In this document: positions 2,754 to 43,054 of the stretch, piece by piece
Layout: each line of letters begins with the position of its first letter
Position numbering within the stretch: the stretch's first letter is position 1
Source: a virus
Taxonomy: Duplodnaviria > Caudoviricetes
DNA length: 47,108 bases
IMG/VR virus record: IMGVR_UViG_3300037467_000647
Coordinates: 1-47,108 of that record
Reading direction: 5' to 3' (one strand)
Translations under genes and position numbers: made by a program
Notes under the pieces: model-generated
What the model was told of the DNA's origin: nothing
Databases searched by the model: none
The model's input: only the letters and a program-made list of their open reading frames with translations

Positions 2754-3158
2754 ATGACGGGACACGAACTGCACTTGCACTGCGAAGCATGGCGCCAATG
2801 GTGTATTACGCGGCAGTATTTCATCGCGCCGGGAGCAAAGAATATCCTTGCGCGAATGCAGCCGGCCAAAGTCGGACAGCCTCCGGATGCCATCCTGTCT
2901 GATGACATGAGCTTCTTCAACATGGCGGTTCATGCGCTGGCGGACATGCAAGGCGAAGATCCGGAATGCTTTGTCAAGTTCTATTGGTTCCGCGAGAAGA
3001 ACATCAAGAGCATCGCGGCGCGCATGGGCATTCACCGTGACACGTTCTACGCGCGCAAGAATCGATTTGCGGAGAAAGCGTTTTCAATGGCCCAAAGTCT
3101 GAAGCGCGCGCATCTTGCTTCAGTTTCTGTGCCGGTCGATGCTGCTGAGATCGACTGA
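2754..3158 (+). CDS. Q-like late antiterminator/activator (alternative start 2610)
   Basis: Last gene before the late operon; C-terminal HTH IKSIAARMGIHRDTFY; AGGGG RBS. Confidence 0.7.
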   Translation: MTGHELHLHCEAWRQWCITRQYFIAPGAKNILARMQPAKVGQPPDAILSDDMSFFNMAVHALADMQGEDPECFVKFYWFREKNIKSIAARMGIHRDTFYARKNRFAEKAFSMAQSLKRAHLASVSVPVDAAEID

Positions 3159-3159
3159 G

Positions 3160-3208
3160 AGTGTCGGAGTTTATCCCTACAAAATAGTTGTGGATAGCCT
3201 CCGACACT
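3160..3208. promoter_or_regulatory. Imperfect inverted repeat after the Q-like gene, probable late-promoter regulator site
   Basis: AGTGTCGGAG..TATCC ... GGATA..CTCCGACACT. Confidence 0.5.
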
Positions 3209-26608: not shown

Positions 26609-28027
26609 TCAAAACTGGAAATACAGAAATCCGGCCGGCTTGCCGACGAATAATGTGATAGTCGAAACAAGCAATCCGAGTGCAATGCCAGTTACCCAAG
26701 CTGAAGATTTTTGAAAAAGTATTTCTGCGGTTGTGTTGCGAAACGTAAGATGCCACGCCATTAGTATGACCACCGAGCCAATCGTAAAGATGGTTTGCGA
26801 AAATTCTATATTTGGAACCAATAATTTGACAGGATGGACGTGCATAGCGACCACAATTCTCCACGCCTGCCCAAGCGATGTTGCGCGAAACACGACCCAA
26901 CTGATAACGACGCCGTACATCGTCACAAGCCAGCCTAGTAGCGTCGATACCGGACCGAGCCGTTTGCATGTGGCTATAACAGATGCAAGCTGTCGCTCGG
27001 CAATCAATAATGCGCCGTGATAGGCGCCCCATGCAATGAAATGCCAAGCTGCTCCATGCCACAGGCCGCCCAACAGCATGGTGATTGCGAGATTTATTCG
27101 AGTTCTGATCTTTCCGCTTCTGTTTCCGCCGAGCGGTATATAGAGATAGTCGCGTAGCCATGACGACAGGGAGATATGCCAGCGCCGCCAAAAGTCCGAG
27201 AACCCGAGCGAGCCGTAAGGAAAACGAAAATTGTCAGGAATGTGAAACCCGAGACAGAGCGCTGCGCCGATCGCACATGTTGAGTAGCCGGCAAAATCAA
27301 AAAATATCTGCCCTGTAAAGGCGAGGGCTGCCGCCCATGCCTCCAGCATTGTCAACACAATATTTGGCGCGAAAAGCTTGTCGGCCACGGGCGCGAAGAT
27401 TTGATCCGCCAGAATCACCTTTTGGAATAGACCCCAAACGAAGAGATTCAAGCCCCAGGCGAATTCCGGCCATGTCGCTTTGTGGAATTGACGGCACTGC
27501 GGCAGTATGTCTCGCGCACGAAGGATGGGTCCGGCAACCAAGTGCGGGAAGAATGACACGAACATTGCAAAGTTCGCCAGTGATGGCTCTGGCTTGATGC
27601 GCTTATAGTAAATGTCGATCGTATAGGACAGTGCTTGGAAGGTGTAGAACGAGATCCCGACTGGCAGAATCAAGCCAAGCTTTGGCGGCTGATATAGCAC
27701 ACCGAACGAATGCAGTAGGAGCCTGAAATTCTCGAGCGCGAAGTCAGCATATTTGAAAAAGCACAGCACGCCGACATTGAGCAAGATGCTTCCGAAAAGC
27801 CAGAACTTGCGACGTGGGCCCTCGGCCTCTTCTATACGCTTCGCCAGCAGCCAATCAATAACGGTTGATGCCGCCAGCAGCAGGACGTATGGTGGGTGGT
27901 ATGAGGCAAAAAATAGGAAATTCGCTGTCAGCAAACTGCCTTTTCTGATCGCCATTGGCAGCGGACTGTAATGTACCGCCAGCACCACGAAAAAAAAGGC
28001 AACGAAGACTAGAGAGTTAAAAATCAT
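26609..28027 (-). CDS. MBOAT O-acyltransferase (AlgI/PatA/DltB family)
   Basis: LPVGISFYTFQ, FFPHLVAGPI, DFAGYS, FWRRWHISLSSWLRDYLYIPLGG, GLWHGA, C-terminal FLYFQF. Confidence 0.95.
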   Translation of the reverse strand: MIFNSLVFVAFFFVVLAVHYSPLPMAIRKGSLLTANFLFFASYHPPYVLLLAASTVIDWLLAKRIEEAEGPRRKFWLFGSILLNVGVLCFFKYADFALENFRLLLHSFGVLYQPPKLGLILPVGISFYTFQALSYTIDIYYKRIKPEPSLANFAMFVSFFPHLVAGPILRARDILPQCRQFHKATWPEFAWGLNLFVWGLFQKVILADQIFAPVADKLFAPNIVLTMLEAWAAALAFTGQIFFDFAGYSTCAIGAALCLGFHIPDNFRFPYGSLGFSDFWRRWHISLSSWLRDYLYIPLGGNRSGKIRTRINLAITMLLGGLWHGAAWHFIAWGAYHGALLIAERQLASVIATCKRLGPVSTLLGWLVTMYGVVISWVVFRATSLGQAWRIVVAMHVHPVKLLVPNIEFSQTIFTIGSVVILMAWHLTFRNTTAEILFQKSSAWVTGIALGLLVSTITLFVGKPAGFLYFQF

Positions 28028-39472: not shown

Positions 39473-39655
39473 CTAGTCAATCTCCACAAGTTCAGCATTC
39501 CCAGCCTCAAGCTGGGAAAGTGATTTATTGAGTTGCTCCGCGAAATCCTCTGCGCTCAGGTCGCGCTTGGTGCCTGGATAAAACTTGATATTTACCACAC
39601 CTAGAGCGTCTTTGTCGAACAGCCTTTTTGCTGCTAATTCAACTTGCGTGCCCAT
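39473..39655 (-). CDS. 60-aa hypothetical protein, partner of the IrrE-like gene
   Basis: AGGAG RBS; 23 nt upstream of the IrrE-like gene. Confidence 0.7.
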   Translation of the reverse strand: MGTQVELAAKRLFDKDALGVVNIKFYPGTKRDLSAEDFAEQLNKSLSQLEAGNAELVEID

Positions 39656-40050
39656 TTCTTTCTCCTAATATCCAATGTGGATGAGTTAATGCAAAAACTG
39701 GAAAACCTGCAATTTTAGCGCACTTGCTTGCAAGATGCAAAAAAACAGAGGAACTTCTTGTTAGTAGATGTGGTGAGCATATAGTTTCCTTGGTCGGTAA
39801 AGAACTGCTCTAGAAGCACAATATATCACATGAGTGATTAAGATATTGCGTAACGCGCAAATGTGTGCTTTGTGTTGTTTTTGATCAGATTGCAACTTAC
39901 CTCCCGCACTCCCTCCGCTCCAGCCGATCCCTAAAGCCTCACACTCGCCGGCCACCACTCATAGACATCTAATGCCAGCACGTAGCCAGCGCCTTTGCCG
40001 GCTTCCGCTCTCTCGGTGTGACCTAGAGTTGGTTCCTACGACAATGGGCG

Positions 40051-40179
40051 CTACGGCTTGACTACACTCACTGGCGCCGCCGTATGAAAGGATTGGTCGC
40101 CGCCATCGTCAGCGCCACCGCCACCGCAGCCGATCAATGCCAATAAGACCACCCCAATCAAGATCGATGTTCGCATCAT
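40051..40179 (-). CDS. 42-aa lipoprotein
   Basis: LIGC lipobox; GGGAGG RBS. Confidence 0.6.
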   Translation of the reverse strand: MMRTSILIGVVLLALIGCGGGGADDGGDQSFHTAAPVSVVKP

Positions 40180-40317
40180 GCCCTCCCAGGCTGTTGTTAT
40201 ATATGAATTCTGGAGGGCAATTTTACGCCGAGCGAGCGCCCGGTGTATCCCATGTCTATGGGGGCTAGCAAGAACTCGATCCGTCAACGGCATTCCGCAG
40301 TATGGTCGGTCGCCACC

Positions 40318-40938
40318 TTACAATTTGGACGCGGCGCTCTTTTGATCCGCTTCTTTTGTCGCCGAGGCTCTGGCAGTCGCAGCGTTGTCGCTAAAGATAA
40401 CCGCCGACTGGTCGATGCTCTCAAACCGCTCCGAGGCCACTATCGTGATCTTTTTGCCGCTCCAAACATATGACTGGTTCGGATAGGTCGGGCCGCCCCG
40501 GCTCTGCGCCTCGCTCATTACTTGCGACGTTGGCTGCCCGTATCGCTCCTTCAACACGTTGCAAAATTCGGCAAAGCGATCATGGTTCATTCGTGCGGTT
40601 ATCTTCGACAAAACACCTGAATCGTCCACGCTTACGGAGAAGGCGGCGTATGTGAAGGGGTGTCCCTCAATTGTAAGGAGCGGCTTGTACCCGGGCAGTG
40701 GATTGGCGACGGTAGAAAGACATGGCGAGGCCGGATGGGACACGCCTTCTTGGCACGATGGAAGGCCGCCATCTTCAGGTGGAACGCCAAGCCGCAGGCC
40801 AAGAACGGTGCTCGGTTCTTTTGTCCATGCCTGCGCTTGATCTCGCGAAGGCGCGGATTGACTCTTCGGCTGCGCAAAGGTGAATGCTGGAACAGCGAGA
40901 CAAACTGCCAACCAGACTGCGAATCGCATTACCCTCAT
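40318..40938 (-). CDS. Secreted/periplasmic protein downstream of cI
   Basis: Signal peptide ending AFTFA; LKERYGQP motif; GGAG RBS. Confidence 0.75.
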   Translation of the reverse strand: MRVMRFAVWLAVCLAVPAFTFAQPKSQSAPSRDQAQAWTKEPSTVLGLRLGVPPEDGGLPSCQEGVSHPASPCLSTVANPLPGYKPLLTIEGHPFTYAAFSVSVDDSGVLSKITARMNHDRFAEFCNVLKERYGQPTSQVMSEAQSRGGPTYPNQSYVWSGKKITIVASERFESIDQSAVIFSDNAATARASATKEADQKSAASKL

Positions 40939-40992
40939 TTGGCTCCCCTATCAGCCCAGGCACCCACACGCGCATTCCCATAATCATGGGAG

Positions 40993-41035
40993 ATGCAAAA
41001 CTTGCCGCTTCGACTTATACTGTATGAACATACAG
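40993..41035 (+). promoter_or_regulatory. SOS promoter with LexA box CTGTATGAACATACAG (41020-41035) overlapping the -10
   Basis: ATGCAA-17-TATACT; exact CTGT-N8-ACAG. Confidence 0.85.
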
Positions 41036-41118
41036 TGCTTTCTGTTCCCCGCAGACCAGGCAAGGCCAGAACCACATGAGGCACCTGTTTTTCTTACCTT
41101 AGGTTAGCGGAGGAGAGC

Positions 41119-41256
41119 ATGTCAAAACAGGAGGAGGCAGCATTGTTGGCGGCATTCAAACAATTGAGAAAGCCGGATCGAATTTTTGTGCTATCCGTCA
41201 CTGAAGCGCTTAAAAGGCCGACACCGAGTACGCCACCGGACACAAAAAAACTATAA
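41119..41256 (+). CDS. 45-aa SOS-controlled protein, putative antirepressor (MSKQEEAALLAAFKQLRKPDRIFVLSVTEALKR...)
   Basis: Read by hand; GGAGGAG RBS; downstream of the LexA box; converges on cI. Confidence 0.7.
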   Translation: MSKQEEAALLAAFKQLRKPDRIFVLSVTEALKRPTPSTPPDTKKL

Positions 41257-41601
41257 TTTTGGTAATTTTTCAGCCATCTCGGCCAGCTTCAGGATTTGAT
41301 TTTGACCGTTTTCGGTTGAGCGTAAGTAAAGTCCAATTAACTGCACTATCTCCGCAGCATCGACCCTGTCTGGATCGGAATCCATCCAACCGCGCGGCTT
41401 ATCGAATTTTTCCTCTATCTTGCGGCATTCGTCGCTCGAAATCCCTCTGGCCTTACCAGTGCCTGAATTGGTAGACGCATTCAGCCACTGACTTACTTGC
41501 GGGCCAGACTTGTCTAGACGCTCCGCGAGTGCGCCCAGCGTGCCGCACTCTGCGCGCAACATCGCCAACCTTTCCCTGCGAATCTCTTCCACGGTTTTCA
41601 T
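41251..41601 (-). CDS. cI: CI-like repressor (116 aa, HTH, no S24 peptidase domain)
   Basis: LGALAERLDKSGPQVSQWL HTH, CRKIEEKFDKPRGWMD; divergent from cro. Confidence 0.85.
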   Translation of the reverse strand: MKTVEEIRRERLAMLRAECGTLGALAERLDKSGPQVSQWLNASTNSGTGKARGISSDECRKIEEKFDKPRGWMDSDPDRVDAAEIVQLIGLYLRSTENGQNQILKLAEMAEKLPKL

Positions 41602-41612
41602 GCGCGTATTAG

Positions 41613-41698
41613 ATAGCCAACCGCTAAAAAGCGGAATTCGCATAAGGCTAATATTTTTCACGAGTAACCTTGTATAGTGTTTAGCTTTAGGCTAATAT
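41613..41698. promoter_or_regulatory. OR operators and pR promoter
   Basis: Three TTAGC-N5-GCTAA-like sites near 41613, 41637 and 41681; TTGTAT-17-TAATAT; 41680-41698 is the exact reverse complement of 38085-38103. Confidence 0.85.
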
Positions 41699-41703
41699 AA
41701 GGC

Positions 41704-41964
41704 ATGCGCTTACGAGAATACCTATCCCAAGAACGAGGACGGCAAGCCGCCTTAGCCAAGGCCATTAATGCCCACGCCCCTGATTTGAGCAGGTGGGCGG
41801 ACGGCTCTCGCCCAATCCCAATCCAATACGGCCCTGTCATTGAGCGAGAGACAGGAGGCGCCGTAACTAGGAAGGAGATGTTCCCCGACGATTGGGAGCG
41901 CATCTGGCCCGAACTCGCCGAGCCAAAGGAAAACCGCCGCTCCACCGACAAGAAATCTCCCTGA
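41704..41964 (+). CDS. cro: Cro-like repressor (YdaS family)
   Basis: QAALAKAI....DLSRW, IERETGGAVTRKEMFPDDW. Confidence 0.9.
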   Translation: MRLREYLSQERGRQAALAKAINAHAPDLSRWADGSRPIPIQYGPVIERETGGAVTRKEMFPDDWERIWPELAEPKENRRSTDKKSP

Positions 41965-41973
41965 AGCACTTAA

Positions 41974-42006
41974 GCCGTCGCCTGTAACGGGTGACGGCAT
42001 TTTTTT
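41974..42006 (+). terminator. tR1-like terminator
   Basis: GCCGTCGCC...GGTGACGGC followed by a T run. Confidence 0.75.
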
Positions 42007-42618: not shown

Positions 42619-42785
42619 GCGAACTCCGCAAACTCAACGACCTGAAGGCCGATGCCCACCGCTGCGCCGACAAAGGTCTTGATCCGCACATCGAGCAAAT
42701 GAAATACGAGCCGATGCATCGCGTTATCTGGATGACGCATTACGCGTATCGGATGGAAGAGAACGAGAGGAGGGTAGCGGCGTGA
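42615..42785 (+). CDS. Hypothetical 56-aa protein
   Basis: Read by hand; coupled overlaps. Confidence 0.55.
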   Translation: MSELRKLNDLKADAHRCADKGLDPHIEQMKYEPMHRVIWMTHYAYRMEENERRVAA

Positions 42786-43054
42786 ACGTTAAAGCTGGCG
42801 ATCTGGCGATATTGATTAAATCTGCCGCCAATAACGAGGGAAAGGTTTGCAAAGTCATTCGCTTTGTTGGCAACTACATTTTCAAAGAGGGTGATTCGTG
42901 CAATGACACTTGGATTGTTGAATTTCCAAGGCCGGTTGCTGCCATGGATGGGTCTGTTTATCTAGATGGCTACATCAGCGATGCATGGCTTCGTCCCATA
43001 TCTGGCCTTCCAATCGAAGAAGACACCAACATCGAAGATCGGGTGCCAGCATGA
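42782..43054 (+). CDS. Hypothetical protein (KAGDLA...DAWLRPI family)
   Basis: Recurrent phage motif. Confidence 0.7.
   Translation: MNVKAGDLAILIKSAANNEGKVCKVIRFVGNYIFKEGDSCNDTWIVEFPRPVAAMDGSVYLDGYISDAWLRPISGLPIEEDTNIEDRVPA

Follow-up and report, generated by a model that had tools for sequence, protein, structure and literature searches.

Many prophages carry short repressors that do not cleave themselves, and the route by which these are induced is usually unknown. The closest described systems are the following. In the Bacillus arbitrium phage phi106, the 29-aa peptide AimX is encoded behind a LexA site, its gene overlaps the end of that of the short repressor AimC, and it blocks AimC oligomerisation (10.1101/2025.11.23.689978). 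In the SinI/SinR pair of Bacillus subtilis, the antirepressor and the tail of the repressor share residues, the helix pairs hook together, and the heterodimer so formed loses DNA binding (PMC3163267). GfoA and GftA of the Gifsy prophages, as well as Tum of phage 186, represent a wider class in which a small, LexA-boxed antirepressor is combined with a short, non-cleavable repressor (PMC3121763). Finally, the TF-smORF antirepressors of linear phages of Vibrio and Aeromonas consist of a small ORF whose product inactivates cI without proteolysis (PMC10432266).

Here we describe a phage locus in which a 45-aa ORF, preceded by a LexA box, converges on a short cI gene. An earlier sequence-only reading of this DNA had proposed a LexA-controlled micro-antirepressor mimicking the C-terminus of cI, with Tum and Gifsy as precedents. 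These precedents do apply, but the reading missed AimX/AimC and SinI/SinR, which are closer and make the mechanism less novel.

The immunity region of the phage

The window, i.e., the whole stretch of 47,108 nt that was analysed (IMG/VR record IMGVR_UViG_3300037467_000647), is a complete temperate phage, with direct terminal repeats, a rating of 100% completeness, and annotated genes for an integrase, a terminase, a tape measure protein, RusA and Gp157. Its switch is lambda-like (Table 1), and a terminator-like hairpin (41974-41998) lies downstream of the Cro-like gene. A close relative (L061) is a Noviherbaspirillum MAG, and matching DNA is otherwise found in soil and rhizosphere metagenomes. 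In a related phage contig, both flanks of 39992-41935 match and the whole immunity segment is replaced by 1241 other bases, which reads as an immunity-module swap. Adjoining the integrase there is also an MBOAT O-acyltransferase gene (26609-28027, minus strand), possibly a surface-modifying gene of lysogenic conversion.

Table 1. Coordinates of the switch elements in the window and of the corresponding regions in three known phages
Feature	Position	Strand	Remarks
Putative -10 element TATACT	41016..41021	+	overlaps the left arm of the LexA box; -35 poor
LexA (SOS) box	41018..41037	.	core CTGT-N8-ACAG at 41020-41035; sole strong box in the phage
Conserved 5' leader element	41035..41084	+	outer stem; segments TCCCC and GAACC; inner hairpin variable
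Ribosome-binding site GGAGGAG	41109..41115	+	purine-rich SD also before most homologues
Putative antirepressor, 45 aa	41119..41256	+	convergent with cI, overlaps its end
Short cI repressor	41251..41601	-	116 aa from ATG 41601; XRE-type HTH and predicted C-terminal helices
cI-cro intergenic switch region	41602..41703	.	palindromes 41621-41634 and 41681-41695; putative operators
Cro-like regulator	41704..41964	+	PHROG 35, Pfam YdaS-like; divergent from cI
Switch region, L068 (phiE125)	2893-3200		
Switch region, L069 (KS9)	2870-3190		
Switch region, L070 (BgManors32)	2870-3190		

The start of cI is not settled, because the database gene call begins at an upstream ATG (41643) and gives 130 aa; neither form contains a cleavage domain. 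The in-frame stretch 41602-41661 (minus strand) upstream of the cI ATG has a similar translation in all close relatives, and would be either part of a longer form of cI or else conserved operator DNA. The N-terminal HTH of the repressor corresponds to PHROG 12107 (E 4e-22, residues 1-82 only), and Peptidase_S24 (PF00717) has no match anywhere in the complete phage record, so that the claim of a short cI devoid of the RecA-cleavable S24 domain is borne out. In a model built from a 19-row alignment (mean pLDDT 89), the HTH domain is followed by two C-terminal helices, 82-94 and 97-112. The top fold match of this model, a weak one, is Rep in the Rep-Ant complex (PDB 5D50, E 5e-3, 28% identity), a pair which we take to be that of phage SPC32H; in the fold searches, no match of cI or of the peptide reached E 0.001.

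Short XRE repressors are substrates of ImmA-type proteases, and cI could be cut by an IrrE/ImmA-fold protein of the phage itself (38871-39449), the small ORF being then a side module. This protein of 192 aa has an Atlas model that does align with ImmA/IrrE (PF06114) clusters, with a TM of about 0.6. Nevertheless, it presents KELMH where the fold has HExxH, i.e., the metal motif lacks its first His; it has no PF06114 match, its gene lies 1.8 kb from cI and carries no box, and tblastn did not find it in any of the fetched loci (flanks of 1.5-4 kb). We consider such a route highly improbable. A 60-aa gene (39473-39655, minus strand) precedes this one on the same strand, and the two are perhaps a lysogenic accessory or a toxin-antitoxin-like pair.

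As for the small ORF, its length, strong ribosome-binding site and end overlapping the cI stop were correctly recognized in the sequence-only reading. The overlap comprises 6 nt (41251-41256, CTATAA), the two stops are adjacent, and each of them is the antisense of the last Leu codon of the other gene. Two contigs of the protein collection have the ORF annotated as a gene, and, among the loci for which DNA is available downstream, the three closest have a homologue in the same position, 44-52% identical. Differences by codon position amount to 75/56/122, most of them at the third, and six pairs together show 64 synonymous codon changes, a coding-type conservation which argues that the ORF is a real gene. 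The peptide model presents helices 3-14 and 18-32, followed by a disordered tail.

When 1.8 billion representatives were searched with a profile of the peptide, 19 matches came up, 18 of which were retrieved; nearly all are small proteins in which the matching part is N-terminal or close to it (one 990-aa repeat protein was excluded). Ten of them were checked by name, six being hypothetical and four having no name. Against Pfam, PHROGs, NCBIfam and solved-structure sequences, libraries that may not model every antirepressor, no significant match and no named antirepressor family was obtained. The best score of a search of the ESM Atlas was 0.81, at chance level, and a scan of viral contigs with a four-row peptide alignment produced 157 candidates, of which none was confirmed.

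The bare pattern CTGT-N8-ACAG has two exact matches in the window against 0.43 expected, and is weak evidence alone because two are reached in 9 of 100 shuffles. Scored with a LexA matrix trained on eight boxes, from loci without this peptide, the box reaches 26.2 bits and the next-best site in the 47 kb only 7.1, and the proposal of an exact SOS box overlapping a TATACT -10 holds; about 1.5% of random 300-nt windows score as high as the boxes of the relatives. The same motif is found in tandem upstream of lexA in the three full-length lexA loci of host-family genomes, and the fourth lexA match in these genomes is a 74-aa HTH-only protein without a box. A 74-aa protein with the LexA DNA-binding domain only (L143:1501-1722) is encoded about 4 kb from the module of L083, on the same contig.

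Of 18 leaders that have a box, 13 retain the TATACT element. Its -35 partner matches the consensus at best in three of six positions and a consensus promoter scan reported no promoter at the box or the -10, and for this reason we infer the promoter from the -10 element and its conservation. Four RNA-labelled runs contain 9-13% of the sequence words, and their contigs, which come from relatives, match 40975-41076, touching the box and the leader, and cover neither the ORF nor cI.

The leader constitutes an additional conserved layer. Its outer stem covaries, with five pairs, 93% of cells paired and two-sided changes in three of the pairs, in an alignment of 13 leaders that were selected for having the element (window, L017, L061, L073, L081, L083, L092, L099, L101-L104 and L124). 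Comparison with Rfam 15 yielded no matches, either in the 13 loci at the gathering score or in the window segment 39500-42500 at E up to 5. The leader would then be an undescribed conserved RNA, outside Rfam; its identification as a c4-type or other known RNA was rejected on the same grounds. It may pair with the ribosome-binding site, alternating with its own fold; the predicted probability of pairing with the SD is inconsistent, being at least 0.66 in 5 of the 13 leaders and at most 0.05 in another 5.

Recurrence of the module in relatives

Searches with cI, with the peptide and with DNA brought up 22 relatives that share the layout of a short cI and a convergent peptide gene. The box precedes the peptide in 17 of them (13 of 18 without the four loci that had been selected by the box), and five are without a strong box (L020, L079, L088, L133 and L134); four weaker, box-less candidates (L120, L125, L129 and L130) were excluded from the count. 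The cI-first search contributed ten loci (L017, L020, L029, L030, L061, L112, L124, L132, L133 and L134). The peptide-first search, run on 401 genomes of the family, two times over, and on 43 of the genus, contributed eight (L073, L079, L080, L081, L083, L088, L092 and L099), each adjoining a short XRE cI; the HTH subfamilies of these repressors differ, whereas the C-terminal tail motif is the same. In turn, the box and leader DNA, searched among viral contigs, led in five of five loci to the peptide together with a convergent cI or cI end, four of these loci being new and one repeating L017.

The association was also considered from the side of the repressors, in a biased set of 79 distinct cIs whose downstream DNA extends for 400 nt or more. 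Among short cIs the box is present in 20/60 and the peptide in 17/60, against 0/16 for both among long cIs (at least 200 aa, cleavable-type), three of middle length being uncounted. For the box in cI-first loci only, the difference is 12/48 versus 0/16 (p 0.028); upon removal of the training loci the short cIs fall to 6/40 (p 0.17) and then to 3/36 (p 0.54), and significance is lost. Counter-cases do exist: L117, L119, L123 and L131 have a short cI with a similar tail and no such ORF.

The conserved convergence bears on a second claim of the sequence-only reading, namely that the transcript could act antisense to cI. In its strongest form, an SOS-driven convergent transcript would silence cI by antisense pairing or polymerase collision, the peptide being secondary. 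The overlap is indeed kept in the relatives, from 6 to 72 nt, and read-through into cI is possible because no plus-strand terminator-like site is reported between the ORF stop and cI. However, the coding overlap in the window is of 6 nt only, the ORF is conserved as a protein, and less synthesis would presumably not clear the existing repressor quickly. Moreover, in the phi106 study, recoding the aimX overlap had no effect, while a start-to-stop mutation abolished the response (10.1101/2025.11.23.689978). Given that the protein mattered in a phage of the same geometry, where antisense action was excluded by experiment, we regard it as very unlikely here, and this part of the earlier proposal is not supported.

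Furthermore, the position beyond cI appears to be a general SOS slot, filled by different genes. In phiE125, KS9, BgManors32, L021 and L023, a short cI is followed, 275-310 nt past its stop, by a box, together with an unrelated convergent ORF, and the position therefore does not imply mimicry. In a related short-cI group (L011, L031, L034 and L038) the slot contains a long, common, apparently structured non-coding stretch and no peptide; in L011 and L031 this stretch has no Rfam match. Two other loci (L066 near 7118, L054 near 7883) present a strong SOS box 2.9-3.7 kb downstream of a short cI and none adjacent to it, a Gifsy-like layout.

Box-less homologues of the peptide without an adjacent cI are also found in satellite-like islands (L097:1501-1668, L072:1435-1596, L074:1477-1671 and L082:1369-2223). 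The L097 island has an integrase and AlpA, the context of L072 and L074 was judged by eye, and L082 carries three copies in tandem. These homologues are co-oriented and could be considered as candidate trans-acting antirepressors.

Both the filling of the slot by unrelated ORFs in other Burkholderiales phages and the occurrence of homologues in integrase/AlpA islands devoid of cI or box (L072, L074, L082 and L097) would also suit a LexA-controlled gene with a target other than cI, e.g., a host SOS or defence protein, with induction proceeding by another route. This is distinctly unlikely in our opinion: the peptide accompanies one type of cI tail across HTH subfamilies and never the 16 long cIs, it aligns with that tail, and the phage has no other strong box. 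Very probably, the ORF encodes a protein antirepressor under LexA. The notion of a LexA-controlled micro-antirepressor, already put forward from the bare sequence, is well supported by the conservation of the box, the ORF and the convergent short cI, together with the lack of a cleavable repressor.

Probable kinship with the repressor tail and proposed mode of action

The sequence-only reading attributed to the peptide the same hydrophobic register as the C-terminus of cI. BLASTP of the peptide against cI gives nothing, and hhalign of shallow 4- and 6-row profiles a probability of 0.3%; the register becomes apparent with family profiles. Comparing alignments of 33 rows for the peptide and 19 rows for cI, hhalign aligns peptide 3-36 gaplessly to cI 82-115, at a probability of 40% and E 2.9e-4. 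The profile comparisons used full-length alignments and script-cut cores, and a separate profile figure of 83% corresponds to hand-registered, trimmed cores. In free scans of 652 ORFs of the window, the window's own sequences being omitted from each profile and self-matches left aside, the peptide comes first with the cI-tail profile, and the cI tail comes second with the peptide profile.

In L020 and L102 the peptide could almost pass for a cI tail, and three unrelated HTH proteins (L085, L087 and L098) match the peptide profile at their C-termini. The predicted hairpins are similar, with 12+15 residues in the peptide and 13+16 in the cI tail, although amphipathic helix pairs easily look alike. 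A complex prediction for cI 72-116 and peptide 1-38, given as alignments and run without controls, obtained a score of 0.11 (mark 0.32) and speaks neither for nor against pairing. A recent inverted duplication of the cI end at the DNA level was rejected as the origin of the ORF, since 187 of 500 shuffles score as well; the resemblance is old. Altogether, the peptide family would be a weak, in-register homologue of the C-terminal helices of cI, and a C-terminal domain of this type, copied and set on its own, is the likeliest origin of the gene.

This suggests a simple mechanism. In the lysogen, host LexA would hold the ORF off; upon DNA damage LexA would be cleaved and the peptide made, its helical hairpin substituting for one cI hairpin. 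The mixed pair, having only one DNA-binding head, would come off the operators, and cro and the lytic genes would then be switched on. That cI oligomerises via its hairpin, and that the peptide binds there, we infer from SinR/SinI and AimC/AimX. On this analogy the peptide probably acts by replacing one cI oligomerisation hairpin. The dominant-negative mimic of the sequence-only reading is consequently retained as regards its profile-level homology and matching predicted helices, the interaction itself being a prediction.

Beyond the hairpin, the relatives carry a further signal. The pattern L-x-[LVI]-[VI] follows it in 15 of the 22 convergent relatives and in 3/3 island copies, against a background of 5.6% in 3850 windows; with a preceding Pro the figures are 10/22, 3/3 and 0.4%, and the full [RK]-P-x-L-x-[LVI]-[VI] tail, a post hoc pattern, is present in 7/22. 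Examples are L073:1405-1590, L080:1501-1689, L103 and L072:1435-1596, with P-x-L-x-[LVI]-[VI]. The SspB of PDB 8ET3 ends in RPALRVV (residues 158-164 of 165), and the C-terminus of host-family SspB reads [RK]PTLTR[IV]K in five of five. According to one report, the XB motif of SspB binds ClpX's zinc-binding domain wherever it is placed and, fused to a bait, leads to the degradation of an untagged target (PMC12373786).

The family could consist of phage-made ClpXP adaptors, in which the hairpin would bind cI and the SspB-like tail would tether it for degradation. Nevertheless, the XB-like motif is absent from the window peptide and its three closest relatives; if the family does consist of adaptors, this peptide would have lost its tail and be left with sequestration only, or else use another degron. 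The tail patterns, moreover, were picked post hoc, the relatives are not independent, and the background contains spurious ORFs. Frequently, a Leu in the motif corresponds to the stop of cI read in antisense, although island copies without an overlapping cI still keep it. An adaptor function is, on balance, unlikely.

A broader scheme, speculative but conceivable, would bring these observations together as a bait-and-tether degrader: a freed cI hairpin joined to an SspB-like tail, dropped in this clade, would deliver the repressor to ClpXP, the box-less island copies would wake helper prophages in trans, and the leader RNA would gate translation. For the window peptide itself, replacement of one cI hairpin is the mechanism that we favor.

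Comparison with known switches

What was known already is the logic of LexA and an antirepressor (Gifsy, 186), as well as the layout and proposed mechanism (AimX/AimC, SinI/SinR). The new elements are an unnamed family of Burkholderiales peptides, the leader, the SspB-like tail of the relatives and the satellite-like island copies. A literature search, whose scope left most subscription papers outside, found no description of this Burkholderiales family and no phage-made protease adaptor, which is what the SspB-like tail, if functional, would represent. For a group of Burkholderiales prophages, the module offers a small and concrete candidate for the switch. It would extend the mechanism of SinI and AimX to Proteobacteria, in a form whose sole visible input is LexA, and suggests an origin for antirepressors, i.e., the repressor's own tail set free. 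It also provides a search rule for further cases: a convergent small ORF and, about 190-310 nt past the cI stop, an SOS box.

Applied to described phages, this rule flags gp40 of KS9 and an unannotated ORF of phiE125 as candidate antirepressors. phiE125, KS9 (gp41/gp40) and BgManors32 resemble the window in having a cI of 130-133 aa of the same HTH family, a convergent ORF and an SOS box, here 287-290 nt past the cI stop; they differ in that the cI tail and the slot ORF of about 95 aa are unrelated to this peptide. The slot ORF is annotated as hypothetical in KS9 and BgManors32; in phiE125 it lacks an annotation, the call of gp51 extending across the box. Elsewhere in the window, the kinship of 42782-43054 with the KS9 gp40-type ORF is not significant.

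With the Tum/Gifsy class the locus shares, at the level of sequence, a short cI without S24 and a small gene behind a host-type LexA box. The Gifsy antirepressors, however, are located far from the immunity region, beside dinI (PMC3121763), whereas here the gene is adjacent to cI and convergent with it. The Rep-Ant pair (PDB 5D50) is related through its Rep, which the cI model matches best in fold. The TF-smORF antirepressors are further away: they are SOS-independent, activated by phage transcription factors and not adjacent to cI (PMC10432266).

The likeness to SinI-type mimics lies in the register that the peptide shares with the cI C-terminus, weak but reciprocal, and in the two-helix hairpins predicted for both; the weak fold matches obtained with the cI model include 1B0N (SinI/SinR; E 0.36), and the peptide has no Pfam match to the SinI family. 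That pair, by contrast, is a chromosomal biofilm switch under Spo0A, not LexA (PMC3163267). As in AimX/AimC, the small ORF is convergent with and overlaps a short repressor gene that is divergent from a cro-like gene. The phages of that system are nonetheless those of Firmicutes, and aimX is also under AimR/AimP peptide signalling (10.1101/2025.11.23.689978). An aimR-aimP pair is absent here, judging by ORF size, as no plus-strand ORF of more than 107 aa lies within 1.5 kb upstream. In addition, it is the antirepressor family that aligns with the repressor tail in the present case, and the two systems are likened by layout, not by sequence. The module stands outside the arbitrium module and the named antirepressor families, but would work like them.
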